Assembly (NCBI GenBank): GCA_012520995.1
Contig: JAAYNI010000046.1
Span: 42,650-106,649, forward strand
DNA length: 64,000 bases
Source: Candidatus Rifleibacteriota bacterium
GTDB taxonomy: Bacteria > Muiribacteriota > Ozemobacteria > Ozemobacterales > Ozemobacteraceae
Direction of reading: 5' to 3'
The notes below the pieces were generated by a model. That model did not search any database. It saw only the letters and a list, made by a program, of their open reading frames with translations, and was not told the DNA's origin. How positions within the stretch are numbered: the first letter of the stretch is position 1; every line of letters begins with the position of its first letter. Shown here one piece after another: positions 5,232 to 63,763 of this stretch. The position numbers and the translations under genes are program-made.

Positions 5232-5687
5232 ATGGCCTTTGTTTTCAAATTGCAAAAGCTCTTGGAGTTAGCCGAACATGAAGAAGAGCAAGTAAAGTTA
5301 GAGCTGGCGGCAAAGGATGCGGAAATAAAAGCCTTGGAAAAAAAAGATCGCGAAGCAGAACAAAAATACAATGCCACAATTGACAGCAGATACGAACATT
5401 TAAAGAATGGCGACATAATTCAGTTAAATATGTGCACAGCATACCTTGATATTATTACTAAAATTAGGTTACAATATAAAGAGGACTTGGCCGATCTCCA
5501 AGCGCAAAGACAGGAGATTGTCCAACGTCTCACAGAAAAGAGAAAAACAACCAAGACCTACGAAAAGATAAAAGAGAATGAAGAAGACAAATATAAAAAA
5601 CACATGCTCAAAATTGAGCAAAAGCAGTTGGACGAATTTGGAAGCAGGTTACGGACATCAGATCCGGAAGGAGAATACAATGCTTGA
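5232..5687 (+). CDS. fliJ: Flagellar export chaperone FliJ
   Basis: 151-aa coiled-coil protein immediately after fliI with a TAGGAG ribosome-binding site. The N-terminus FKLQKLLELAEHEEEQVKLELA is FliJ-like. Confidence 0.65.
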   Translation: MAFVFKLQKLLELAEHEEEQVKLELAAKDAEIKALEKKDREAEQKYNATIDSRYEHLKNGDIIQLNMCTAYLDIITKIRLQYKEDLADLQAQRQEIVQRLTEKRKTTKTYEKIKENEEDKYKKHMLKIEQKQLDEFGSRLRTSDPEGEYNA

Positions 5688-6051
5688 CAACATACAAAAT
5701 GTCACAAACCGCATCGACGTCATCAAAACAAATCTATCAAATCGTCTTCCTGTTATGAATCGTATGGTCTCTTCTGACTTCTCTCAAGAAAATAAAAATT
5801 CAAAAACTATATTTGATAATCAACTTTTAGGTGCAATTGAAATGGGCAGCAAACATATCCGCAACCTAAGGGCAGCTCTTAATAACTTGGTAGCTGAAAC
5901 TTGCATAAAAACAGGTCTTGAGCCTGATGAAGTAAGACAGCTTATTCATCAATTCACAGCAATAGACAAAGCTGATCCATTTTTAATCAATCTAAAGAAA
6001 AGTGCCCCTCGCCAGTTGCGCAATGCTATAAAGCTGGTAAAAATAGAATAG
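5680..6051 (+). CDS. Hypothetical flagellar-operon protein (123 aa)
   Basis: Start moved from the ORF-track position to the ATG at 5680, which has a GGAAGGAGAA ribosome-binding site 6-8 nt upstream. It overlaps the fliJ 3' end by 8 nt. I recognise no family. Confidence 0.4.
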   Translation: MLDNIQNVTNRIDVIKTNLSNRLPVMNRMVSSDFSQENKNSKTIFDNQLLGAIEMGSKHIRNLRAALNNLVAETCIKTGLEPDEVRQLIHQFTAIDKADPFLINLKKSAPRQLRNAIKLVKIE

Positions 6052-6064
6052 GAAAAAATACCCG

Positions 6065-6982
6065 ATGCCCAATCCGGAAGATCTTCTGCCGACTCCGGAA
6101 ACAATCAATGGGGAATCTGGAGCCCCTGCCACTCTAAAAACGAGGATTGCCAAACCTGTGAGTCCTCCTGAAAAACCCTCAATGTTTTTCTCACTCATAA
6201 AAAAAATGGCTTTCCTTGTTTTGCTTTTTGTTTTTATACTTTCTATCCTACTATCCTTGCTGACTTTGGATTTCTTGGATATTTTAGTCTTCAGACACAG
6301 CATTCCTGAAAAGTATGCAGAAAAGCCACTTATAAAAAAATATTTAGACTTTGTCAAACTCCACCAACTCCCGGAAGAAGAAAAATATTACCAACTAATA
6401 TATGAGCAAAGAATGAAATATAATCAGCTCATAACTGAAGGCAGCAGAGATCTCAAAAAAAGAGCCGATCTTCTGGAAAGCTCTTACAGAGATTTGATTA
6501 GAGTTCAAAAAAACAAATATTCCAATGAAATGGAAAATTTACGAAAAGCCAGAGAAGAAGCCGAGCTTGAAAAAAGCAAAACTGCCGCTTTGCAAGCTGA
6601 ACTGGACACGCAAAAAGCCAAACTAGAAAGCGCCAAAGCAGCTCTGGCATCAGAAGCCATCAAAATAGAAGCTGCTCTGATTAAATTCATGGAAAAAGAC
6701 AACCGCTTGGATCAAATTTGCAGCATAGCTGCTCAAATGGAGCCGTTGCCATTGGCCAAAATTTTTGACGAGATCTCAGACGATCAGCTTATATATGACA
6801 TATTAGGCGGTTTGGAGCCAGCTCACTCAGCTAAAGTTTTAGCAGGCATGGATAGAGAAAAAGCTGGCAAAATAATGAGAATAGGCGCAATACCTCAAAC
6901 TGTGCCAGGATATGAAGGAGTTGCTCAAGGACAGCTTCCACAAGAACTGCGACAAGCTCTTCAAAATGCGAAAGACATCTAG
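6065..6982 (+). CDS. Membrane-anchored coiled-coil flagellar protein with MgtE_N-like C-terminal domain (YlxF-like)
   Basis: One TM helix (FLVLLFVFILSILLSLL), a long coiled coil, and a C-terminus (QMEPLPLAKIFDEISDDQLIYDILGGLEPAHSAKVLAGMDREKAGKIM) resembling the MgtE N-terminal/FliG-like fold. Its position after fliJ mirrors ylxF in Bacillus-type fla operons. Confidence 0.55.
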   Translation: MPNPEDLLPTPETINGESGAPATLKTRIAKPVSPPEKPSMFFSLIKKMAFLVLLFVFILSILLSLLTLDFLDILVFRHSIPEKYAEKPLIKKYLDFVKLHQLPEEEKYYQLIYEQRMKYNQLITEGSRDLKKRADLLESSYRDLIRVQKNKYSNEMENLRKAREEAELEKSKTAALQAELDTQKAKLESAKAALASEAIKIEAALIKFMEKDNRLDQICSIAAQMEPLPLAKIFDEISDDQLIYDILGGLEPAHSAKVLAGMDREKAGKIMRIGAIPQTVPGYEGVAQGQLPQELRQALQNAKDI

Positions 6983-8100
6983 TGCTGTTCGAGAGTGATA
7001 TCGGCAATAAAAAGACTCAGAGTTCTTTCAGGATCGTCAGCTGCCCCCTTCATTTTAAGGTCGGTTTCAACCATCATTTCGGAAAAACGCAAAGCTTCAC
7101 TCAAACTGAAATTAACAGCTTGAGAAAGGTTTCTAATCTGCAAACTGTTTGTCAAACCCAAAGAGTCAGAAATTTTTTGCGGTAAATGCGCTGATATTTC
7201 TTGTATCTCTTTGACTATTTCTCTTTTTTGATTATTAGAAGCCCAATCCTCTTTGTCAGCTATTCTGGAATATCGTTTCAAAAGCTGGCTTACAGGAGCC
7301 AGCAAATCAGGTCTGTCAGCTTCAAGGGAAAGAAAAAGCCTTATCAGCCTTAGACGTTTTACCAGCATGAACCAAACCATTTGCGGTGCTTCACCGCTTT
7401 GCAAAAGTTTTTGCAATATTCTGAGCGACTTGCCCGTATCCCTGTCACCAACTGTGTTTAAAAAATCAAAAACATTGTCTTCTTTAGAATAGGAAACCTG
7501 TTTTTTTACATCCTCAAGCGAAATCTGAGCTTTTTTCTTCCCTGCCGAAAGCTTCACCAATTCAGAATAAATAACTGGCAAGCTAGTGCCTGTAAGCTCT
7601 AAAAGCAGCTCTGCCGCCTCAGTGCTTATAGCAGTGCCCAATCTACTTGCTTGCTCTTTAACCCATGCAGGCAATTTATTTGCGAAGGGCTTCCAGAAAT
7701 CTACCTGGTCAGATTGTCGTTTCAGAGCCGACTCAATTTCCTTAGCATGGCGAGAATTTGAAACTTCAAAAAGTATACAGGTATTAGATGGAATCTGAGA
7801 GTCCGAAAGACTTTTCAGAAGGTTTTTACGATCTGCGGCTTTTGCTTCAGAAAAATCCGAAAGATAGAGAAACCGCATATCGGAATTAAAGGAAAAAACA
7901 TTCAGCTCTCCAAAAAGAGCACTCAAATTATCGCTGCTTATTCTTATGTGATTTGCCGCTCTGTTCTCAGGAGCAACATAATTAGAGAGCAAAGACTGTA
8001 GTGCCTGCTCTTTTAAAAAAGGCTCGTTGCCCGCAAAAACATACGCGGGCAACAGAGCCTGTTTTTTTTTAATTATCTGTTCAAATTCTTCAGATTTCAA
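6979..8100 (-). CDS. holA: DNA polymerase III delta subunit
   Basis: N-terminal LLPAYVFAGNEPFLKEQAL... and a clamp-loader delta-like helical domain. It is convergent with the flagellar operon and overlaps its last gene by 4 nt. Confidence 0.7.
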   Translation of the reverse strand: MKSEEFEQIIKKKQALLPAYVFAGNEPFLKEQALQSLLSNYVAPENRAANHIRISSDNLSALFGELNVFSFNSDMRFLYLSDFSEAKAADRKNLLKSLSDSQIPSNTCILFEVSNSRHAKEIESALKRQSDQVDFWKPFANKLPAWVKEQASRLGTAISTEAAELLLELTGTSLPVIYSELVKLSAGKKKAQISLEDVKKQVSYSKEDNVFDFLNTVGDRDTGKSLRILQKLLQSGEAPQMVWFMLVKRLRLIRLFLSLEADRPDLLAPVSQLLKRYSRIADKEDWASNNQKREIVKEIQEISAHLPQKISDSLGLTNSLQIRNLSQAVNFSLSEALRFSEMMVETDLKMKGAADDPERTLSLFIADITLEQH

Positions 8101-9526: not shown

Positions 9527-9775
9527 GTTGTTTCCTTTCCAAATCTAGAATGATTCAGATCAATATATTAATTTAATAGCGTTTGGCTGATATGATATCA
9601 CAGTTGCCTATTTCGTCAACAAAGGCATTATTTTTAACCTGTTATTGAAAATCTGGGATTAACGCCTAGCAACATTGATGCAAAGCCAGATAACAAAGAA
9701 AGCATTGCAGAGTTGTATTGTAAATAATGCAAATTTTAGATGTTAAACAGAACTAGCTTATGTTAATCTTCTGCT

Positions 9776-27527: not shown

Positions 27528-27640
27528 TCTAGTGCTGTATTTTGTCTAAAACTTTCTTTTGAAAGACATCTTGCTCAACAATAAATCATAGTTGGCAGCT
27601 ACTAAGATCGCACCGTGGTGAGTGGCAAGTAAGAATCAAC
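27528..27640. repeat. Copy A of a dispersed intergenic element (ctagtgctgt...tctaaaac ... aagatcgcaccgtggtgagtgg)
   Basis: It shares both the 5' block and the 3' block with the elements at 61006-61130 and 49109-49245, with similar spacing between them. Confidence 0.5.
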
Positions 27641-27734
27641 ATTCATAACAGCCCTTCTATCCGCAGATGAGGGCAAAAACTCTTAAAGCAAGCTTAAGAT
27701 AAAACAGACTGCCAGAGGCTTTAGAGCAACTTTC

Positions 27735-44876: not shown

Positions 44877-44935
44877 GGCGAGTGCTGAGTGACGTGCAAG
44901 AAAGTTTTAGACAAAAACAAAGCACTAGAGTTTTT
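44877..44935. repeat. Partial copy D of the agtgct/agcactag element, terminator-like, just after ligA
   Basis: ggcgagtgctgagtgacgtgc ... caaagcactagag followed by TTTTTC. 6-bp inverted arms agtgct/agcact. Confidence 0.4.
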
Positions 44936-46916: not shown

Positions 46917-49077
46917 GAATGTTGTCAAAACCCTGAAACTCGACACTGTGACTCTCTTCACAGCTCTTTTTATTTCAGGCCTCCTTGTATCTTCAATTTT
47001 CCCTACTGAGTATGCCCTCCTCTGGCTTGCAGCTTCAATTCTTTGCTTTGCGGCATCTTTCAAAGCAAAGAATAAAAAAGCTTTAATATCTTTGCTTGCT
47101 GCAGCTGCCATTTTAGCCTCCATGTTTTATGCTGCAGTCAAATTTACTCCAAGCTTAGCCACAAAAGATCTTCAAACCCTTGAGGGAACAAAAGGGGAAA
47201 TCACAGGCATATTTTCAGGTTCCATAAAAAAGCTGAAGGACGGCTCATGCTCATTTCTTTTACGTGAATCCTATTACAGAACAGGTGAAAGGCTCTTAAG
47301 TCTTCCTATGCCAATAAGATGTAAAGCTCCAGCATCTGCCTGCCACATAGTTTCAGACAGTAAAGTCACCTTAACAGGCTATATGGAGGCATTGCCAAAG
47401 AGCAACCGAGTCCGTTTTGAAGCTGAAAATTGCAAGCTGGGAGAAAAAATTATAAAGTCCCATGTTTTCGCCTATTTTGATACACTTAGAAACAAAATAA
47501 TCACAAAGCTTCAGAGCATTTTAAAACCCGAACATGCTTCTTTCATATCTGCCATAATATTTGGCGAAACTTCATTTTTGGAAAACAACGAACTCTATCG
47601 CAAAACGGGAATCACTCATTTAATGGCTGTCTCTGGTCAACATTTAATGATCTTGGCTTTATTTTTGACTGCGATTCTCTACAAAACAGGAGTTCCCCCT
47701 CTTTCCAGAATCATATTCGTATCTGTATGCCTCTTGTTTTATGCGTTATTAACGGCAGGTTCACCATCGGTTTGGAGAGCCTTGCTCATGTATGTTTTCG
47801 TAGCCTTGACAGCCTATTTGGATGCGGAACACGTGCCAACCAGAGCAATTTCAATAGCCGCCCTGCTTATTTTGCTTTATAACCCTGCAAATCTGTACAG
47901 CCCTGCCTTTGTGCTCAGCTTCATAGCAGTGTTGTCTATAATATTTTTAAGAAAGCCTCTTGAAAAACTATTTTCCAAGCTCCGCCTGCCCCAATCAGTC
48001 AACCGATACTTGGCTGCGAGTACTGCCGCAAACATAGGCACTTTACCAGCTTCAGCCTGTTTATTTGGCTCGCTGCCCATTTCAGGTCTCATTGTAAACC
48101 CGCTTATTCTCTGGATATTTGCATATATATTCCCAATGTCTTTTACAATAGCCATTCTAGCTCTTATATCGCCAGAATTCGCCTTAAAATTCGTTCCCTT
48201 TCTCTCACTTGTCTTAGATGGAGTGACAATATTTTTGGAGTTTTTTGAAAAAAACTTGGGTCTATATTTTGAGTTCAACAAAATCTCTCCCTTCATAGCC
48301 TCCTTGCTGTATGCGATATTATTTGCCGCTGCAGCTTATTTCAACAGAAAAGAAGCAGAAACAGCAAAAGAAACTGCCAACTCTCTTGAAACAATCCGAA
48401 AAAAACGTTCTCAGCGACAAAGACAAAATCGTATTGAACAAGAGACTCAAAGTGAAAAAGAAGAACCAAAAGCTATAAAAGTCCCTCCTAAAAGGAAAGC
48501 CTTGGAAAACAGAAATTTATTGCGCGAAATAGATAATAGACTGATGCAACTTCCAAGACTTCCTGTTAAAGGCTCAGAATTGAAAATACATCCTAAGCTT
48601 GATCCAAAGCTCCTTCAAATAAACGCACAAAACCTTTACCATCGTGTCATGGAAGCTGACTCAAAACTATACATGGAAAGTCCTGACAGACTTTTAGAAT
48701 CTTGCACATCTCTTTTAGGAATAGTTTCCATGGAACTTCTTTCAAGAGTTTCGAGACTTTCCTCCAAGCCCAATTTTTCTCCATCTGATATAAAAATTAA
48801 GTTTCGCGTGGAACACAGAGAATTAGCTATGGCAGCAATTACTGACAGCATATTGGCTCCAGCCTTCATAATAGAAGTTCCTGACGAAAAATTTAAAATA
48901 ATGCTCTCAGAACTCCAAGGATTGTTCAATAAAGCAAGCGACCTTCTTGAAGGCCTTCTCTCGCCAACAGATTTATCAAAACTCCAAAAAGATTATGAAC
49001 TGCTGCGCAGCGAGCTTTTTTCTTGGTGCAGCGACTTTATAACTCTAGATCTGAATCAAAAACACAAAAAACCTTAA
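46903..49077 (+). CDS. comEC: ComEC/Rec2-family DNA-uptake channel protein lacking the metallo-beta-lactamase domain
   Basis: Competence-domain signature TGITHLMAVSGQHLMILALFL and a multi-TM core. The C-terminal ~240 aa are charged and helical, with no HxHxDH motif. The only start codon I see is the TTG at 46903, which is uncertain. Confidence 0.7.
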   Translation: MRPPKNVVKTLKLDTVTLFTALFISGLLVSSIFPTEYALLWLAASILCFAASFKAKNKKALISLLAAAAILASMFYAAVKFTPSLATKDLQTLEGTKGEITGIFSGSIKKLKDGSCSFLLRESYYRTGERLLSLPMPIRCKAPASACHIVSDSKVTLTGYMEALPKSNRVRFEAENCKLGEKIIKSHVFAYFDTLRNKIITKLQSILKPEHASFISAIIFGETSFLENNELYRKTGITHLMAVSGQHLMILALFLTAILYKTGVPPLSRIIFVSVCLLFYALLTAGSPSVWRALLMYVFVALTAYLDAEHVPTRAISIAALLILLYNPANLYSPAFVLSFIAVLSIIFLRKPLEKLFSKLRLPQSVNRYLAASTAANIGTLPASACLFGSLPISGLIVNPLILWIFAYIFPMSFTIAILALISPEFALKFVPFLSLVLDGVTIFLEFFEKNLGLYFEFNKISPFIASLLYAILFAAAAYFNRKEAETAKETANSLETIRKKRSQRQRQNRIEQETQSEKEEPKAIKVPPKRKALENRNLLREIDNRLMQLPRLPVKGSELKIHPKLDPKLLQINAQNLYHRVMEADSKLYMESPDRLLESCTSLLGIVSMELLSRVSRLSSKPNFSPSDIKIKFRVEHRELAMAAITDSILAPAFIIEVPDEKFKIMLSELQGLFNKASDLLEGLLSPTDLSKLQKDYELLRSELFSWCSDFITLDLNQKHKKP

Positions 49078-49108: not shown

Positions 49109-49245
49109 CTAGTGCTGTGTAGCATCTAAATGTTTATTGTCGGACAGATTTTTTTCTATCCACAGATGGACACAGATAGGATTTTTAAGCTAGCTTAAAA
49201 ATCAGTGCTGGGTGGTGAGTGACGAGTTGAATTATTTAGATTCAA
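49109..49245. repeat. Copy C of the dispersed intergenic element (ctagtgctgtgtagcatctaaa ... gtgagtgacgagttgaatt)
   Basis: Matches element B (61006-61130) at both blocks with similar spacing, and shares the 5' block with element A. Confidence 0.5.
49180..49203. promoter_or_regulatory. Perfect 24-bp palindrome gatttttaagctagcttaaaaatc upstream of the second pilin operon
   Basis: Self-complementary over all 24 nt. It lies about 230 nt upstream of the 49431 start codon. Confidence 0.5.
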
Positions 49246-49430
49246 ACACTAAAACTGACAACTGCTTTAAGATGCTAATAAATAGTCGAAACTTTAAGAT
49301 TTGAAAAATAGAGAACAACCTTGATGCAACTTTAATATACCAGACAGCAACAGAAAAGGCGGTTCACTTGCCCCCATTTTCCTTCTCATGTTAAAGTCTA
49401 TAGGCGACTTAATACATTTGGAAATTTAAC

Positions 49431-55743: not shown

Positions 55744-58365
55744 ATGAAAAGAAAAATTTTTATTCTGCTTCTTTTGCTTTTGATATTGCCCCCCTTTTTT
55801 ACACCTTATAAAGCTCATGCAACATCAGAGCAAAATCCCGTAGAGATTATTGGCACATGGAATCTGATCAACAAAAAAGAATATCATGACACTGAAATTC
55901 TTCAGGTATTGCCTACTCGCGACGGAAAGATAAACACTCTTTCAATTGATCAAAATGGAACCTTTGTAAATACTCGTTACGAAGAAAGTCGCCTTAACTT
56001 TAACAAACAAGGGCAAAAACTCCCTCAATACGAAATGAAAGATGGGGGCACAACTAGAACAGTAAATTCTTGGACTTGCAGCGGCAACCTTTTGAAATTG
56101 AAAAACCGAGGCGACTGGTATTATGAACTAAAAGACAATAATCTCTGGCTGAAAGATCGTGCTGAAAATGCAAGAGTAATACGTGTGTTCAGCAAAACAA
56201 AACAACCTTCGCCATTGCCTGGCGATCTTCTTCTGGGAACATGGCATATGACTCAGCTGAAAGAGTATCATGATTCTGAACCTCTTCAGGTATGGCCTAA
56301 CCAAGCAGGAGAAACAAACACTCTGCAAATAAATAAAGACGGAACTCATACTACCATAAACTATCAAAAAGAGCGTCTTAATTTTGAGCGACATGGTTAT
56401 AACTTGCCACAATATGAAATAAAAACTGGAGATACAGTAACCCAAAAAGAAGGTCACTGCAAAGCTTACAATAACTCTGTCTTGTGGCTGGAAGGACAAG
56501 ATGCTTGGGCATACAAACTTAAAAACGACAATCAGGAATTGTGGCTCCAAGATCGTGCCGACAAACCAAATACAATATATGTTTACTCTAAAACTCCGCC
56601 GAAAAGCACCTTACCCTCTACGGAGCTTATAGGCACTTGGCATATAATCAAACAAAAAGAGTATCATGATTCTGAACCTCTTCAGGTATGGCCTAACCAA
56701 TCAGAAAAAACTCATACTCTGGTAATCAATAAAGACGGAACCCACTCAAGAACTGATTATGAACAATATCGTCTCAATTTCAACAACTATGGTCATGAGT
56801 TGTCACAATATCAAATAAAGGATGGAGGCACAGCAGTCCAAAAAGAAGGCTACGCTAAATCCTATTATGACAATGTTTTATGGCTGGAAGGCAAAGACAA
56901 CTGCACATACGAATTAAAAAACGACAATCAGGAGTTGTGGCTGAAAAACCGTGTCAAAGATGCCAATACAATATATATTTACAGCAAGAAGTCGCCACAA
57001 AACACCTTGCCGACTGCTGATTTGACAGGCACTTGGCACATGATTCAGCTTAAAGAGTATCATGATTCTGAACCCTTCAAGATATGGCCTACCGAAGACG
57101 GAAAAAACAACACTCTAATTATTAATAAAGACGGAACTCATACTACCATAAACTATCAAAAAGAGCGTCTTAATCTCAGCCGCTACGGTTATGAGCAATT
57201 ACAATACCAAATAAAGAATGAAGTCTCAGAAAAGAAGGAAGGATACGCTAAATCTTATTACGGCGATGTTTTGCGATTAGAGAATCAGGAAGACTGGTAT
57301 TACGAACTTAAAGGCAACGAATTATACCTTAAGAATCGCCTTAAAGATGCCAATACAATACGTATTTACAGCAAAACTCCTCCACAAAGCCCTTTACCGC
57401 AAGCATCTCTCATTGGCACATGGAATATCTATAAGATAAAATGGCATGACAGCGATCTGCATAGGGTAACACCACACGAAGATGGAAATAGAGACAGCAT
57501 AACTATTGATGCAAAAGGAACCCACTCAAGCGCTACTTATAACCACAGCCGCCGCCAATTTGCAAACGAAGAAAAAACATATACAACACACGGCGATCCG
57601 AAAAAACGCTCAGGTTTCTGCAGATCATATTTTGGAAATGTTCTAATACTTGAAAATATGGGAACCTTCAGTTATGAAGTTAATGACAATGAACTGAGCC
57701 TTAAGGATCTCCCAACAGACCCTCGAAGCATTGACCTTTACAAAAAAGTTTCTTCACCGAAAACCCCAGCAGAGGGCACAGCCGTTGCAACAAAACCTGT
57801 CACCTCTGACACAAAAGTTTCAGGAGCAACTCAAGAAGCAAAGACTGGAGCTACCAGCACAAAAACTTCAGGAACAACCCAAGGAACAAAGACTGAAACT
57901 GCTGGCACAAAAACTTCAGGAACAACTCAAGAAGCAAAGACCGGAGCTACTGGCAAAAAAACTACAGATTCAGCTCAAGAAGCAAAAACTGGAGCTGCCG
58001 GCACAAAAACTACAGGTTCAACCCAAGAAACAAAGACTGGAACTACTGGCACAAAAGCTTCGGGAACAACCCAAGGAACAAAGACGACCTCGCCCACACA
58101 AAAGACGCAAACATACGATGAAGCATATGACACAGATATACCGCCTTTTCCTGCAAATCTGCCTGTTCCAACAGAAGAAGATGACTATGAATTTATGCAG
58201 GTTTATCTAGATTACGTAACAACGCATAAAGAATACACAATTCTTAAAGCTTCAGCTAAAGAACTCGGCGTCCGCATACCTCCAGGCAAACTTGAACAAG
58301 CGCTGGACGCTTATCGGAAGGCATATAACAGATATAAAAATATGGCTCTCACCAGGAAGAAGTGA
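55744..58365 (+). CDS. Large secreted protein: 5 tandem ~130-aa GTW-motif domains + Thr/Gly/Lys-rich 13-aa repeats + conserved C-terminal YRKAYNxY motif
   Basis: AGAGGA ribosome-binding site; signal peptide. Five repeats each begin L(I/L/T)GTW(N/H)...KEYHDSEPLQVWP, then TSGTTQEAKTGAT-type repeats, then a C-terminal ...QALDAYRKAYNRYKNMAL. Confidence 0.7.
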   Translation: MKRKIFILLLLLLILPPFFTPYKAHATSEQNPVEIIGTWNLINKKEYHDTEILQVLPTRDGKINTLSIDQNGTFVNTRYEESRLNFNKQGQKLPQYEMKDGGTTRTVNSWTCSGNLLKLKNRGDWYYELKDNNLWLKDRAENARVIRVFSKTKQPSPLPGDLLLGTWHMTQLKEYHDSEPLQVWPNQAGETNTLQINKDGTHTTINYQKERLNFERHGYNLPQYEIKTGDTVTQKEGHCKAYNNSVLWLEGQDAWAYKLKNDNQELWLQDRADKPNTIYVYSKTPPKSTLPSTELIGTWHIIKQKEYHDSEPLQVWPNQSEKTHTLVINKDGTHSRTDYEQYRLNFNNYGHELSQYQIKDGGTAVQKEGYAKSYYDNVLWLEGKDNCTYELKNDNQELWLKNRVKDANTIYIYSKKSPQNTLPTADLTGTWHMIQLKEYHDSEPFKIWPTEDGKNNTLIINKDGTHTTINYQKERLNLSRYGYEQLQYQIKNEVSEKKEGYAKSYYGDVLRLENQEDWYYELKGNELYLKNRLKDANTIRIYSKTPPQSPLPQASLIGTWNIYKIKWHDSDLHRVTPHEDGNRDSITIDAKGTHSSATYNHSRRQFANEEKTYTTHGDPKKRSGFCRSYFGNVLILENMGTFSYEVNDNELSLKDLPTDPRSIDLYKKVSSPKTPAEGTAVATKPVTSDTKVSGATQEAKTGATSTKTSGTTQGTKTETAGTKTSGTTQEAKTGATGKKTTDSAQEAKTGAAGTKTTGSTQETKTGTTGTKASGTTQGTKTTSPTQKTQTYDEAYDTDIPPFPANLPVPTEEDDYEFMQVYLDYVTTHKEYTILKASAKELGVRIPPGKLEQALDAYRKAYNRYKNMALTRKK
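55846..57790 (+). repeat. Five in-frame tandem coding repeats, period about 384-396 nt
   Basis: The GTW codon triplets recur at 55852, 56236, 56632, 57028 and 57415. Repeats 2-4 share long near-identical DNA stretches, for example aaagagtatcatgattctgaacctcttcaggtatggcctaaccaa. Confidence 0.8.
57780..58110 (+). repeat. About 39-nt (13-aa) tandem repeats encoding a Thr/Gly/Lys-rich linker
   Basis: Repeating acaaaaacttcaggaacaac(c/t)caag(g/a)a(a/g)caaagac(t/c)gga... units, about 7-8 copies. Confidence 0.75.
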
Positions 58366-58533: not shown

Positions 58534-60516
58534 TTAGTATGTATTTAAATGAACTTTTGAAGGATCATATTTCTCTTTGGGTTTTTCGCCGCCTAGAGGA
58601 TAACCAATGGGAATCACGCATAGAGGAACAACATTCTCAGGCAGATTCAAGATCTTTTGCAAGTTAGCAGTGCGTTCATCTGAAGGATAAACTGAATTCC
58701 AGACAGCTCCGAGTGAATAACTCTCAGCCGTAAGCAAGATATTCTGAGCTGCTATAGCACAGTCCAGCATCCAGAAAGGAAGAGTATTTCCTTCTTCGGC
58801 TATTTTCAAGTCTCCGCAGACTACTATGGCTCCGCCTGCCGTATTCATAGTTATAGGTCTTATAATACCTTCAAGAGAGTGCAAATGCGAATGTTCTATA
58901 ATAACAAAACGCCAAGGCTTTACATTCATAGCAGTAGGAGCCGCCGATCCTGCTTTTACCAATGCGTAAAGCACATCAGTAGAGACAGGCAGGCCTTTAA
59001 ACTCTCTAACGCTCTTTCTGGCAAAAATATTTTTAGTAACTTCGTTTGATAGGGTTATTTTTTCAGTAACAGTTTGTGATTGATTCAAAATCGGCTGATT
59101 CAATGGCTGACTAGGTTCAATCGTCTTTGCAGCGCCTTTAGTCTCAATTAGAGGCATTGTTTGTTGCACCCCGGTTTCGTAATCTTTAGGCAAATATAAA
59201 ATCACAACGACAATCGCTATGACAAAAATAATGTTGAAAATATCAGAAACACTCATTCGTTTCTCTCCAGAATCCCCTTCCTGTTTTTTATATCTGCACT
59301 TCTCTAGAGCCTCGCCCAATGGACAAATATAATTGCACCAAGGCCGTGGCACAAACAAAGCAAGCAAGAGCACCACAAGTACTATTACCTTGACCGATCG
59401 AGCTGTAGTTCCTATATAAAATATGGAAAATGGCTCAACTTCACTTAAGTTTAACCTAAATCCTAATAAAAAGTAACATAATAGTAATATAAAAATCGAA
59501 ATACGCAAGTGTTTAAAGTATTTTAAGTATTTATGTTTAATTTTGTATTCTTTTGATACACATTTGTTAGATAATTCTTGCAAGGCTCCAAAAGGGCAAT
59601 ACCAAACACAATAGAAGTTTCTATTGAAAACAAGAGGAATAAAAAAAGCACAGAAGGCTAAGATTATCAAAAAAAGATCTTTCTTTAAGCTTATGCCATT
59701 TACAAGTGCAGAATAAAGCATATCTGCCGACAAAAGACTTGGAAATATAACACCTGGTATAAGCACAGCTAAAAACAGCCAAAACTTACGATATTTAGCC
59801 AAAGAGCCCACATTGAAACAAGCTGCAAGGGCTAAAAGCAAAAATATGGAAAGCGCCGAGTATTTGCGACGGTTTTGTTTGCTTTGCTGTATTTCTTTTG
59901 CAACAATATTTTCATAATTTGAAATTGTCCTATTCAGACTCTGTATCATACAAGAGCTGCTTCTTGTAGCCCTTGTTATTGTGTCAGGAGCAAAAGTAGC
60001 CGCTTCTTTTGTATGTTTGCCTCTATAGGCCTTTAAAAGGCCAGCGTCTTCTATTCTTTTCATAAAGCTGGGAGTTTCTGAGTTTTTATGAACAAGAATA
60101 TCCAAAATCATGTTGTCCATATCCAGAATCACCGACATGGGAATATTAGAGGAAAATCCTATTAGATCTTGGCAAAGAGGCATAGTCTGCAAAACTCTGC
60201 CGATCTGATTGCCATTGGCATCCAAGATTGCCGCTTGAGCCTTGCCTTTTTCTTGTTCTATTATTTCGGCTAAGTTCAGTTTTGCAATTTGCTTTATATC
60301 ATTTATCTTGGGCAATTCAGGTATATAAGGTTTGACTATTGCCTTTTCTTTGAAGTCATGACCGAAAAAGCGTTTATCCTGATAAGAAATTATAGCCGCA
60401 AATAAAATAAATATTAATATAATGGGTAATTTAGCTTTGGTTTGTTCAATAAATTTATTCTTTGTCTTCACTGAGTTTTCTCCAAGATTTTCAAGGTTTT
60501 TCTTGATTAATTTCAT
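58534..60516 (-). CDS. Tripartite membrane redox protein: FMN-bind-like periplasmic domain + NapH/NosR-like 2x(CX3CP) polyferredoxin membrane domain + C-terminal nitroreductase domain
   Basis: N-terminal TM, then GFSSNIPMSVILDMDNMILDILVHKNSETPSFMKRI (FMN_bind-like). TM region with CVWYCPFGALQE and CNYICPLGEALE. C-terminal FARKSVREFKGLPV...APTAMNVKPWRFVIIE...LDCAIAAQNILLTAESYSLGAVW (nitroreductase fold). Confidence 0.6.
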   Translation of the reverse strand: MKLIKKNLENLGENSVKTKNKFIEQTKAKLPIILIFILFAAIISYQDKRFFGHDFKEKAIVKPYIPELPKINDIKQIAKLNLAEIIEQEKGKAQAAILDANGNQIGRVLQTMPLCQDLIGFSSNIPMSVILDMDNMILDILVHKNSETPSFMKRIEDAGLLKAYRGKHTKEAATFAPDTITRATRSSSCMIQSLNRTISNYENIVAKEIQQSKQNRRKYSALSIFLLLALAACFNVGSLAKYRKFWLFLAVLIPGVIFPSLLSADMLYSALVNGISLKKDLFLIILAFCAFFIPLVFNRNFYCVWYCPFGALQELSNKCVSKEYKIKHKYLKYFKHLRISIFILLLCYFLLGFRLNLSEVEPFSIFYIGTTARSVKVIVLVVLLLALFVPRPWCNYICPLGEALEKCRYKKQEGDSGEKRMSVSDIFNIIFVIAIVVVILYLPKDYETGVQQTMPLIETKGAAKTIEPSQPLNQPILNQSQTVTEKITLSNEVTKNIFARKSVREFKGLPVSTDVLYALVKAGSAAPTAMNVKPWRFVIIEHSHLHSLEGIIRPITMNTAGGAIVVCGDLKIAEEGNTLPFWMLDCAIAAQNILLTAESYSLGAVWNSVYPSDERTANLQKILNLPENVVPLCVIPIGYPLGGEKPKEKYDPSKVHLNTY

Positions 60517-60535
60517 GCTATCATGAACTCTGCAT

Positions 60536-61009
60536 ATGATTGAAATAGAAAGAAAATTTTTAACAAAAAATTCTGATTGGAAAAATTTAATTTCCTATTC
60601 CCAAAGTTTAAAACAAGCTTATTTGCTTTCGTCGAAGGAAATAACACTGCGAGTTCGCACAATAAATCAAAGCGAAGCTTTTCTAACCATAAAAGGCAAA
60701 AACTTAAATTCAGGTTTAAGCAGAGAAGAATTTGAATATTCCATTCCTTTCGCCGAAGCCGAAGAAATGATTAAAAGTTTTTGCAGAGGTAAGACAATAG
60801 CAAAAACACGCTATATTTGCTTTTTTGAGGGAAAAAGGTGGGAAATAGACGAGTTTGAAGGGGAACTGGCTGGCTTGACCATAGCAGAAATAGAACTTGA
60901 AAACGAAAACGAAATCTTTGCCAAACCTAATTGGATAGGAAAAGAAGTCACAGGCGACCCAGCTTACTATAATGCTGTCCTCTGGAAAAAAATCAATAAC
61001 AATGCCTAG
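60536..61009 (+). CDS. CYTH-domain protein (triphosphate tunnel metalloenzyme / CyaB-like)
   Basis: N-terminal EIERKFL signature plus the characteristic alternating acidic/basic beta-strand residues (RVR, KGK, EFE, EIDEFEGE, EIELE). Confidence 0.75.
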   Translation: MIEIERKFLTKNSDWKNLISYSQSLKQAYLLSSKEITLRVRTINQSEAFLTIKGKNLNSGLSREEFEYSIPFAEAEEMIKSFCRGKTIAKTRYICFFEGKRWEIDEFEGELAGLTIAEIELENENEIFAKPNWIGKEVTGDPAYYNAVLWKKINNNA

Positions 61010-61166
61010 TGCTTTGTAACATCTAAAAATTTCCTGTTAGCCTTTCAAAATTCACAAGACAATATCCACTTATAAGATCGCACCGTGATGAGTGGTGCGT
61101 GGCGAGTGACGAGTTGAATTGTTTAAAACGGCTTAAAAGGAAGTTGAAGCTGAAACGAAGCACTAG
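61006..61166. repeat. Copy B of the dispersed intergenic element, with inverted termini ctagtgct / agcactag embedding both convergent stop codons
   Basis: 5' block cctagtgctttgtaacatctaaaaat, core aagatcgcaccgtgatgagtgg...ggcgagtgacgagttgaatt, 3' end gaagcactag. The CYTH stop TAG sits at 61007-61009 and the rsmG stop (reverse-complement TAG) at 61163-61165. Confidence 0.55.
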
Positions 61167-61897
61167 CAGAGAGGTTTTGCGGCAGCAATTCCTGGACGTC
61201 TTGGATATTTTTTAGGCACACTTTTCATTCGCCGAGCTATAAAAAAGTTTCGCTCATATGGCAACTGCTCTGAAGAAAATCGCTTTATAGACATATTTTC
61301 CGGTGTTATCCCAAATATTTTCATAGAATTAACAGCTTCAGAAACTTCTTCATCGAGCTTTGGCCCCTTATAAAAAATTGCTTGTCCGCCTTTTTTTAAA
61401 AGAGGCATTGAAAACTCCAACAAAACACTCAATGAAGATAAAGCTCTTGAAACAACGATATCAAATTGCTCACGATACAGAAAATCTTGTCCGAAATCTT
61501 CAATTCTGCATTGCAATACTTCCAAGTTGTTCAAATTAAGCTTTTCTGCAATTTTAGAAACAAAGTCAGCTGATTTTTTCCTGGAATCTACTGCCATTAT
61601 TTTCGAATCCGGCAACATAATTGCCAAAGGCAAAGCTGGAAAACCGCCTCCTGTACCCAGATCTACAACTCGCTTCCCTTTCAAGGCTTCTTTCGAAAAA
61701 ACAAGAGGCAAAAGCGAATCCAAAACATGCTTCAAAGCGTATTCTTCTGGTTCAAATATAGTAGAAAAAGTCTTGTACATAGAATCCGAAAGCATTTCAA
61801 AACGCATTTTTTCCAAGGAATTAAATTCTTCCTGCGTAATCTGTAAATGCAAGAATTCCAAATATGGCTTTAAGGTTTCATAAAGAGCTGTTGTCAT
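61163..61897 (-). CDS. rsmG: 16S rRNA (guanine527-N7)-methyltransferase
   Basis: VVDLGTGGGFPALPLAIMLPDSKIMAVDSRKKSADF... The gene order mnmG then rsmG is conserved. Confidence 0.9.
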   Translation of the reverse strand: MTTALYETLKPYLEFLHLQITQEEFNSLEKMRFEMLSDSMYKTFSTIFEPEEYALKHVLDSLLPLVFSKEALKGKRVVDLGTGGGFPALPLAIMLPDSKIMAVDSRKKSADFVSKIAEKLNLNNLEVLQCRIEDFGQDFLYREQFDIVVSRALSSLSVLLEFSMPLLKKGGQAIFYKGPKLDEEVSEAVNSMKIFGITPENMSIKRFSSEQLPYERNFFIARRMKSVPKKYPRRPGIAAAKPLC

Positions 61898-61900
61898 GAT

Positions 61901-63763
61901 TCAAGCCTTTTTAAGAGAAATTAAGATGGTAGCCAAGTCTCCAGCTCTGACAGCAGAAATTCTGGAAAGCTCTTCAACATTGGATGGTCTCACAGCTTTT
62001 ATTTTAAGCTTTGCCTCTGTACTGAGAGCTTTAGGCATATTTTCATAGAATGAATCATCCAACTTTACCTCTTTCATGGAATCAAGAAGCTTAAATTCCT
62101 TGAGCTGCTGCACAAAATAACCTTCATATTTTATTAAGGTTTCCACCTCATTTTTTGCCAATTGAGGCAGCGAGGAGAATTCCGGAATATATTCTGTTAT
62201 ATCTTCAAAAGTGTATTGAGAAGATTTAAGAAGATCGGAAACAGAAACTCGCTTTTTACTCCCTGGATTAAAATCAGGAAAATCTTCGGATAGTTTTTCT
62301 AAAGGAATCTCTGTATTTTGGCAGGCATTCAAAGCTTCATGAGAATACTCAATTAAGGAAAGAATCTTTCCGTATTCTTCTTCAGTAAGCAAACCATAGC
62401 GAAAAGCAATCTCAGAAAGCCTATTTTCCGCATTAGACATTCTCAAGTTGAGCCTAAACGGAGAGCGTGAAGTAAAAACTCTGTAAGGCTCAATTATTTC
62501 CCTGGTAGTAATATCATTGATCATAAGACCAGTATAAGATTGTTCCGGCGGCATGATCAGCATTTGTTTTCCAAGAACAATAGCAGCCGCATTAAGCCCT
62601 GCCAATAGACCTTGAGCAGCGGCTTCCTCATAGCCCGATGTTCCGTTCACTTGCCCTGCCAAGAAGAGATTTGGCAAAGTTTTAGACATAAGAGTCGGAA
62701 AAAGATCTGCAGGATTAAAAATATCATATTCTATAGCATAACCGGGCCTAACAATCTCCGCTTTTTCAAGACCTTTTACGCTTCTTATAACTTCAGCTTG
62801 AACTTCTTCTGGCAGGCTGGTTGAAAGACCCTGTAAGTAAATTTCTGAGCTTTCAGAGCCTTCTGGTTCCAAAAAAACTTTGTGAGCCTGCTTATCAGGG
62901 AACTTCTTGAGCTTATCCTCAATCGAAGGACAATATCTGGCTCCCATTCCTGTAATTTTGCCAGAATACATTGCAGAACGTTCGAAGTTTTTGCTTATAA
63001 TTTCATGGGTGAGATCGTTTGTGTATGTTATATAACAAGGCTTAGACTTAAAAGGAGAAGTAAAAGATCTGTAAGAAAATGGCGGCACTTCAGCTTCGTC
63101 TTCTTGAAGCTGCAAACCTTCAACATTTACTTGTGAAGCGTTTATACGCGGCGGAGTACCCGTTTTGAATCTCATGGGTTGTAAACCTGCATTCACAAGC
63201 GATTCTGTAAGCTTAAGCGAAGGAGGTTCCCCTGCCCTGCCCGCAGGATAAGAAACATCGCCTATATGAATCATGCCGTTTAAGAAAGTTCCAGCAGCAA
63301 CAATGATAGCTCCGGCATACCAAGTCTCACCAGAAACGGCTCTCACTCCTACAGCTTTACCGCTTTCTCTAATCACTTCTGTAACTTTCATCTGCAAAAG
63401 GCGAAGATTGGGTTGCTTCAAAATTGCCTGCAACATTGCCGAACTATATGCTTTTTTGTCCGACTGAAATCTATTGGCTCTTACAGCCATGCCTTTTCTG
63501 GTATTAAGAGAACGTCTCTGCAAACTTGTTTCGTCTGCAATAATACCCATGATGCCGCCCATAGCATCAACTTCTCTAACCAGCTGAGCTTTGCCTTGTC
63601 CTCCGATACTCGGATTACATGGGAGATCTGCTACAGTATCCAAGTTAATCGTACATAATAATGTTGAGGCACCAGCTCTTGCGGCTGCCATAGCCGCTTC
63701 ACAACCAGCATGCCCCGCTCCGACCACTATAACGTCATAAGTATGATTCTGTTCTGTTTTCAT
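61901..63763 (-). CDS. mnmG: tRNA uridine 5-carboxymethylaminomethyl modification enzyme MnmG (GidA)
   Basis: FAD-binding YDVIVVGAGHAGCEAAMAAARAGASTLL, full-length 620 aa, MnmG C-terminal domain. Confidence 0.95.
   Translation of the reverse strand: MKTEQNHTYDVIVVGAGHAGCEAAMAAARAGASTLLCTINLDTVADLPCNPSIGGQGKAQLVREVDAMGGIMGIIADETSLQRRSLNTRKGMAVRANRFQSDKKAYSSAMLQAILKQPNLRLLQMKVTEVIRESGKAVGVRAVSGETWYAGAIIVAAGTFLNGMIHIGDVSYPAGRAGEPPSLKLTESLVNAGLQPMRFKTGTPPRINASQVNVEGLQLQEDEAEVPPFSYRSFTSPFKSKPCYITYTNDLTHEIISKNFERSAMYSGKITGMGARYCPSIEDKLKKFPDKQAHKVFLEPEGSESSEIYLQGLSTSLPEEVQAEVIRSVKGLEKAEIVRPGYAIEYDIFNPADLFPTLMSKTLPNLFLAGQVNGTSGYEEAAAQGLLAGLNAAAIVLGKQMLIMPPEQSYTGLMINDITTREIIEPYRVFTSRSPFRLNLRMSNAENRLSEIAFRYGLLTEEEYGKILSLIEYSHEALNACQNTEIPLEKLSEDFPDFNPGSKKRVSVSDLLKSSQYTFEDITEYIPEFSSLPQLAKNEVETLIKYEGYFVQQLKEFKLLDSMKEVKLDDSFYENMPKALSTEAKLKIKAVRPSNVEELSRISAVRAGDLATILISLKKA

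Follow-up and report, generated by a model that had tools for sequence, protein, structure and literature searches.

A probable IS630-type MITE with the stops of two convergent genes in its junctions, from a Candidatus Riflebacteria genome

We analysed a 64,000-nucleotide stretch of DNA (referred to here as the window) from a Candidatus Riflebacteria MAG of biogas digesters. Near one end of it a CYTH-domain gene and rsmG (gidB) converge on a short repeat, element B, which on its own makes up the intergenic DNA between them (Table 1). An RsmG of identical sequence bears this organism name in NCBI. Digester assemblies in ENA, JGI and Logan contain the locus too, and B is 100% identical across seven metagenome contigs. 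Compared with their homologs, the proteins on either side of B have their full length, and an insertion of B would therefore have truncated neither. CYTH homologs have 150-158 residues (the closest are 56% identical and come from other phyla), so the CYTH gene is not truncated, and the C-terminus of RsmG reads KPLC* against KPL* in its relatives. The closest RsmG homologs, about 50% identical, come from Riflebacteria, and in these the gene after rsmG is plsX/rpmF or another gene, not CYTH. Upstream of rsmG lie two mnmG/gidA paralogs with a HEAT-repeat protein gene between them (window 61901-63763 onward; L001 3478-9997), an arrangement that is kept in the approximately 50%-identical Riflebacteria relatives. 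On the other side, the long ORFs at 55800-58150 carry large tandem repeats (a 396-bp unit present three times at 56230-57321, and a 48-bp period repeated six times at 57758-58133), which probably represent a gene for a repetitive surface or secreted protein.

Table 1. Element B, its flanking genes, related copies and an unoccupied site (window positions unless a locus is named)
Feature	Position	Strand	Basis or remark
Element B with its two CTAG junctions, 161 bp	61006-61166	.	non-coding MITE; foldback over whole length
Inferred element proper, GTGCT...AGCAC, 155 bp	61009-61163	.	lies between two TA target duplications; from IS630-family TA duplication and the CTAG junctions of related ISs and MITEs
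Left TA, inferred target-site duplication	61007-61008	.	reconstructed empty site; with G61009 forms the CYTH stop TAG
Right TA, inferred target-site duplication	61164-61165	.	reconstructed empty site; with C61163 forms the rsmG stop TAG (minus strand)
Left terminal inverted repeat, CTAGTGCTTTGTAACATCTAAAAATTTCCTGTTAGCC	61006-61042	+	first 23 nt as in both L018 IS ends; aligns with right end
Right terminal inverted repeat, reverse complement CTAGTGCTTCGTTTCAGCTTCAACTTCCTTTTAAGCC	61130-61166	-	PWM score 32.4; nhmmer E = 0.00097; alignment
Central family core, TAAGATCGCACCGTGATGAGTGG then GTGATGA GTGGTGC GTGGCGA GTGACGA GTTGAAT	61073-61125	+	heptamer-like G-rich run; includes apical hairpin 61079-61099
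CYTH-domain gene, 157 aa	60536-61009	+	Pfam CYTH; stop TAG in left junction
rsmG (gidB), 244 aa	61163-61897	-	Pfam GidB; stop CTA (TAG on minus strand) in right junction
Copy A, 187 bp	27529-27715	+	intact left end, shared core, decayed right end (CCAG)
Copy C, about 245 bp, right boundary uncertain	49109-49353	+	intact left end, shared GAGTGACGAGTTGAATT core
Solo or partial family end, CTAGTTCTGTTTAACATCTAAAATTTG	9727-9756	-	motif, PWM and nhmmer matches
Solo or partial family end, CTAGTGCTTTGTTTTTGTCTAAAACTTT	44899-44928	-	octamer and nhmmer match
Paired family element	L032 3653-3932		nhmmer end pairs
Paired family elements	L034 3254-3506 and 5932-6345		nhmmer end pairs
Paired family element	L039 2877-3190		nhmmer end pairs
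Paired family element	L040 2279-2537		nhmmer end pairs
Solo family end	L032 7998	-	nhmmer
Unoccupied CTAG with overlapping stops of two convergent genes	6979-6982	.	305-aa ORF 6065-6982 (+) and holA 6979-8100 (-, DNA_pol3_delta)

Element B begins with the octamer CTAGTGCT (61006-61013) and ends with its exact reverse complement AGCACTAG (61159-61166); as the initial annotation had stated, these termini are exact inverted repeats and contain the TAG stop codons of both the CYTH gene (61007-61009) and rsmG (61163-61165, on the minus strand). The inverted repeat is longer than had been claimed, extending imperfectly over some 37 nt: when the left end is compared with the reverse-complemented right end, about 28-30 of the 37 positions match, the outer 9 nt exactly. 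On either strand the whole 161 nt of B folds into one long imperfect hairpin (-48.5 kcal/mol for the plus strand and -44 for the minus strand), in whose MFE structure the termini pair with each other; the z-score of this fold is about -4.4, and none of 200 shuffled sequences was equally stable. Inside or overlapping B there are only spurious GTG-start ORFs of at most 46 aa, none of them credible, and a micro-ORF in the core was rejected because the short reading frames, read directly, are not conserved among copies A, B and C.

Searches for other kinds of functional element at B gave little. A promoter scan returned one weak sigma-70-like match (TTCACA-16-TAAGAT, 9/12, at consensus level only) at 61051-61078 of the plus strand, in the left arm of B, with match counts not clearly greater than those of shuffled sequences; the match points into the element core and is antisense to rsmG, and the segment that contains it is conserved among the arms that we call type 1 (those of B, L033, L034, L037 and L039). 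Rfam gave no match in the whole window at the gathering threshold and, at an E-value threshold, only chance-level matches in 60900-61300 (E >= 0.19), and a scan for tRNA and tmRNA found none. We also considered two kinds of repeat that B might be taken for. Integron attC sites are characterised by GTTRRRY core sites, and REP elements by short GC-rich palindromes; B has no GTTRRRY core sites and, for the REP/BIME reading, no REP-like short GC-rich palindromes, and in both cases the reading was rejected on the further ground that its ends are of IS630 type, as described below.

An 8-nt inverted repeat within about 160 bp is not rare when taken alone, and the simplest account of B would be that this palindrome and its overlap with two stop codons are coincidental in an ordinary intergenic spacer. 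The rest of the window speaks against this. The octamer CTAGTGCT occurs six times where 1.97 occurrences are expected (0 of 100 shuffles reached six), and the extended end motif has four matches where 0.09 are expected. The interior strings that the initial annotation had put forward as a family core do recur, GATCGCACCGTGATGAGTGG at 27606 and GGCGAGTGACGAGTTGAATT at 49214, each with one mismatch and each with a chance expectation of 0.00. Taken with the z-score of the fold and with the match of the ends to those of insertion sequences over 23 nt (see below), these counts effectively refute the coincidental reading, to which we assign next to no probability.

Element B is not single-copy. Its family comprises approximately five or six diverged relatives in the window, which holds three paired elements and two or three solo ends, and at least six further loci elsewhere, with lengths of 161-414 bp. 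A metagenome scan with a 20-nt core string gave seven genuine matches in digester contigs with a G+C content of 0.38-0.42, one of which corresponds to copy A in a strain whose identity to the window is 98.9%; six have nothing but the repeat in common with the window, and so represent other loci. The remaining three of the ten matches (L031, L036 and L038), in contigs of 62-67% G+C, were set aside as chance. With an nhmmer profile of the family end, about 17 termini (E < 0.01) were found in about 120 kb of host DNA. Both B and C are points at which Logan unitig-style contigs break off, which is what repeats would be expected to cause. Copies are found upstream of genes and between divergent genes as well.

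Alignment of the family revealed a heterogeneous, mosaic structure, with three types of arm behind a common end and, at the centre, a G-rich run with a period of about 7 nt, (GTGRNGA)n or, on the opposite strand, (CCCTANN)n, in a variable number of units. Such runs (for example GTGATGA GTGGTGC GTGGCGA GTGACGA, and CCCTACG CCCTAAC CCCTACT on the opposite strand) are located at 61085-61119 in the window and at the element centres in L032, L033, L034, L039 and L040, and their varying unit number suggests slippage. From copy to copy the arms show an identity of only about 80-88%, and decay has affected several right ends; on the strength of this divergence and decay the family looks old, and its present-day mobility is only putative. 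The motif GATCTGAATCA lies beside CTAGA near two of the copies, at 49047-49061 (upstream of C) and at 9545-9565 on the minus strand (at the far end of the copy at 9756); a further decayed end and a coincidental match are both conceivable here.

The origin of the ends was traced by scanning 185,579 species genomes for CTAGTGCTNTNTNNNNTCTAAAANTTT, which gave 14 loci. At L018 the motif occurs twice, in inverted orientation and 1239 bp apart (5453-6691), and both ends read CTAGTGCTTTGTAACATCTAAAAGTTTATAGTTT; the left end of B is identical to both over its first 23 nt (23/23). The interior of this insertion sequence (IS) carries two adjacent ORFs with HTH_32/HTH_23 and DDE_3 domains, which match the N- and C-terminal halves of NCBIfam NF033545 ('IS630 family transposase') and, when concatenated, align over 97-100% of their length to single proteins of 375-380 aa that bear the NCBI name IS630 family transposase. 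We then looked at the sequence surrounding five homologous transposases, including one that was sampled at four insertion sites, and found the same type of end, together with CTAG junctions, in four more IS630-family ISs: L046 (end CTAGTACCGTGTAACATCTAAAACTT), L042-45 (CTAGTAGTYTGTMAAGTCTAAAAGTT, each of the four loci being a different insertion site), L047 (both ends CTAGTGCTTTGTAACATCTAAATGTTTAT) and L048. CTAG stands at the junctions of all five full-length ISs examined. Because the full ISs that have these ends encode IS630-family transposases, we assign the termini of B, by sequence comparison, to the terminal inverted repeats of a subgroup of the IS630/Tc1-mariner family.

The ISs whose ends match those of B belong to organisms other than the host (from termite-gut and further metagenomes, as well as MAGs of Firmicutes type). 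No resident IS630-family transposase was found by tblastn with the L018 transposase in the approximately 120 kb of host DNA, the window included, and no transposase lies adjacent to the pattern-scan loci L011, L013, L015, L019 and L024. Members of this IS630 subgroup encode their transposase in two ORFs that lie in different frames, an HTH ORF of about 155 aa and a DDE_3 ORF of 226 aa (L018 5470-6620, L047 70-1223, L048 526-1664). Many metagenome relatives have kept this division (226-aa matches at 66-73% identity), and its conservation is suggestive of programmed frameshifting rather than of decay. A separate MITE family of about 165 bp is present in another digester MAG, labelled Syntrophomonas sp. 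SMAG_U13135 (L012, L016, L017, L020, L021 and L023). This family is homogeneous, with ends similar to those of B (CTAGTGCTCTGTTAAGTCTAAAAGTTTAT) and at least six paired copies; its ends mostly read CTAG, the exceptions including two decayed left ends. At L016 4719/4722, L011 6116/6119 and L024 5016/5019, IS630-type ends stand head to head with one CTAG in common (...CAGAGCACTAGTGCTCTG...), the pattern expected when a second element inserts into the TA duplication beside an existing one.

The junctions of the host family are equally regular. C-TA precedes all 15 of the well-scoring family termini, and TA within CTAG flanks nearly all relatives as well as both ends of B, whose junctions read C-TA-G...C-TA-G. 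IS630-family elements insert at TA and duplicate it (PMC2170065), and IS630 itself is described there, with reference to Tenzen & Ohtsubo 1991, as preferring TA within 5'-CTAG-3'. The same junctions would also arise if B were a MITE of a transposase family that duplicates four base pairs, for example of the IS5 group, in which case the proper element would be TGCT...AGCA and the whole CTAG would be duplicated; IS5-related MITEs that duplicate CTAG or YTAA exist (for example MITEPsy1; PMC3189936), and such a model predicts an identical empty site with a single CTAG. The transposases argue otherwise, since every full-length element found with ends of the B type encodes an HTH plus DDE_3 transposase of the IS630 family and not the IS5-type DDE_Tnp_1, and the head-to-head neighbours at L016 4719/4722, with their one common CTAG, fit a shared TA better than a shared tetranucleotide. 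We therefore consider a 4-bp duplication very improbable and describe B as flanked by putative TA duplications, while noting that formally its outer C and G might count as element sequence instead of target.

The TAG at these junctions is often a stop codon. No fewer than seven of the 15 CTAG termini provide the stop for an ORF of 128-803 codons, and a further three do so for a shorter one, of 45-69 codons; in neither of the two remaining frames does an open stretch at a family terminus exceed 64 codons. CTAG itself is scarce, with 80 sites in the window against 125 expected from a Markov model or 227 from composition, and 66 of the 80 lie inside genes. Coding sequence, as delimited by a rough greedy ORF call, takes up about 94% of the window, and only eight of its 58 genes end in TAG. 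In a genome that is 94% coding and CTAG-poor, a C-TAG stop is consequently one of the few CTAG sites at which an insertion does no harm. The frequent siting of the family at TAG stops can thus be ascribed to CTAG targeting, the scarcity of CTAG in the genome and purifying selection against insertions within genes. The initial annotation had proposed an element that targets gene ends; most likely it is CTAG that is targeted, and not gene ends as such, and CTAG targeting coupled with selection against intragenic insertions is enough to produce an apparent preference for gene ends.

These observations allow the pre-insertion site to be reconstructed. When B and one TA are removed in silico, the sequence becomes ...GCCTAGCAG..., with a single CTAG in which the stops of the two convergent genes overlap by the central TA and both ORFs remain intact. 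The predicted empty CYTH-rsmG junction is AACAATGCCTAGCAGAGAGG, from which the CYTH protein would still end in ...NNNA* and RsmG in ...KPLC*. An arrangement of this kind is real in the same genome: the unoccupied CTAG at 6979-6982 contains the overlapping stops of two convergent genes, one of them holA, and may serve as a model of the site into which B inserted. The 6 nt that follow this CTAG (TGCTGT) also agree with the way in which the MITE end begins, which may be coincidence. Among the relatives (approximately 50% identical, with synteny lost immediately after rsmG) no orthologous empty site was found, and at the level of strains, which were checked through contigs with an identical RsmG, a 99%-identical CYTH variant or the gene adjoining C, none was found either, all sampled contigs containing B and C or breaking inside them. 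The check for target duplication that the initial annotation had called for shows TA within CTAG on both flanks of B; no true orthologous pair of empty and filled sites was found.

We propose, with a probability of roughly 85%, that B is a non-autonomous MITE with ends recognised by a transposase of the IS630/Tc1-mariner family (DDE_3). With 161 bp, B falls within the size range of bacterial MITEs (about 50-500 bp), and like them it has terminal inverted repeats, occurs in several dispersed copies and encodes no credible protein; its junctions are TA/CTAG. In the history that we infer, the CYTH gene and rsmG were once convergent, with their stops overlapping in one palindromic CTAG (...AAT GCC TAG / CTA GCA G...); a transposase supplied in trans would have inserted the element at the central TA, and the duplication of TA would have given C-TA-[GTGCT...AGCAC]-TA-G. 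Since G is the first letter of the element and C its last, TAG would have been rebuilt at both junctions and neither protein changed, and the insertion, being effectively neutral, would have been retained. The claim of the initial annotation that the element supplies both stop codons then needs qualifying: the stops do lie within its termini, but under this model only the terminal G of each TAG would belong to the element, the TA being duplicated target. A neutral, fixed insertion of a non-autonomous transposon is the best-supported description of B, and it calls for no new mechanism; B is a textbook case of a known kind of element.

The initial annotation had left the choice open between a mobile miniature element and a conserved bidirectional terminator. 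The second possibility can be put more generally, as a 3'-end module (terminator or RNA-stability hairpin) of both convergent genes that the host has selected and conserved for its function and not for mobility. Several features of the locus invite this reading: the whole-length hairpin of B is significant on both strands, B lies exactly between two convergent genes with no other intergenic DNA, a T-rich tract follows the hairpin on the minus strand (inside the 3' end of the CYTH gene), and the hairpins of Correia MITEs are RNase III substrates (PMC2229807). A terminator consisting of a stem plus T-tract was, however, found neither in 60950-61230 nor, in a scan of 60400-61900, inside the element. 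The six other family members that we folded gave z-scores of -0.1 to -1.6, leaving B as the only one of seven with a significant fold, and the family has no conserved structure beyond the pairing of the terminal repeats, so that the folding proposed as a check bears out a structure for B but not one common to its relatives. The interiors are mosaic and variable between copies, some copies lie upstream of genes or between divergent genes, and the ends are of transposase type, common to IS630-family ISs across phyla. We judge a host-selected module improbable as the origin of B, and regard a 3'-end role as a possible secondary consequence of the insertion and not as an alternative origin. The mobile element, for its part, is borne out by the IS630-type ends, the multiple copies, the absence of coding capacity and the CTAG junctions.

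With B understood as a MITE, transcripts that read through either gene would end in a hairpin of approximately -45 kcal/mol, and by analogy with Correia elements this could possibly stabilise or process their 3' ends. A more far-reaching scenario is exaptation. In this scenario a CTAG-targeting, IS630-type MITE family would have systematically colonised TAG stops, shared ones included, in the Riflebacteria lineage, and the near-perfect foldback B would have been retained as a separator of formerly overlapping convergent units, acting as a bidirectional 3'-end hairpin (terminator, RNase III site or insulator). We hold this to be unlikely, with perhaps a small chance of being correct; were it true, an exapted MITE would have created an intergenic region de novo.

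Several points extend beyond this locus. A palindromic CTAG can hold the stops of two facing genes, and a TA-duplicating transposon with G...C ends rebuilds both; since both stops are rebuilt, overlapping-stop CTAGs are safe harbours for such elements in a densely coding, CTAG-poor genome. The end signature TA-GTGCTnTGTnAnnTCTAAAA is defined here and is common to an IS630-family subgroup across bacteria and archaea. The family to which B belongs is a previously undescribed and abundant MITE family in Riflebacteria, a candidate phylum known only from metagenomes, and it matters both for annotation and for assembly, contigs being prone to break at its repeats.

The closest known analogue of B is RUP, the 107-bp MITE of Streptococcus pneumoniae that is derived from IS630-Spn1 (PMC2229807). 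Like B, RUP is a small, non-coding intergenic repeat with IS630-family-like terminal inverted repeats; as is proposed for B, its target is TA and its mobilisation is presumed to occur in trans (PMC2229807). The two differ in that RUP is unrelated in sequence, belongs to another phylum and is homogeneous, with a known resident partner IS, whereas the Riflebacteria family is heterogeneous (161-414 bp, with mosaic arms), has no resident partner found in about 120 kb of host DNA, and has junctions that are consistently CTAG and often at TAG stops. IS630 of Shigella sonnei and ISY100, insertion sequences of the IS630/Tc1/mariner family, have ends of this kind, which are recognised by their transposases, and they insert at TA, which is duplicated (PMC2170065); B, in contrast, has no transposase gene and measures 161 bp against approximately 1.15-1.25 kb, as would befit a non-autonomous derivative or a hitch-hiker. 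Intrinsic (Rho-independent) bidirectional terminators resemble B in lying between convergent genes and forming a hairpin on both strands, but they have a compact GC-rich stem followed by a T-tract. In place of these B has an imperfect foldback of 161 nt, and its sequence is that of a dispersed family whose ends are of transposon type. For the RNA hairpin, the closest analogues are the Correia elements (NEMIS/CREE) of Neisseria, which, as is proposed for B, are small MITEs (about 100-155 bp) with terminal inverted repeats and TA duplication, and which are often co-transcribed with neighbouring genes, their hairpins being cleaved by RNase III (PMC2229807). Correia elements have no sequence similarity to B and no established partner transposase, and RNase III processing, known for their hairpins, is putative for that of B.
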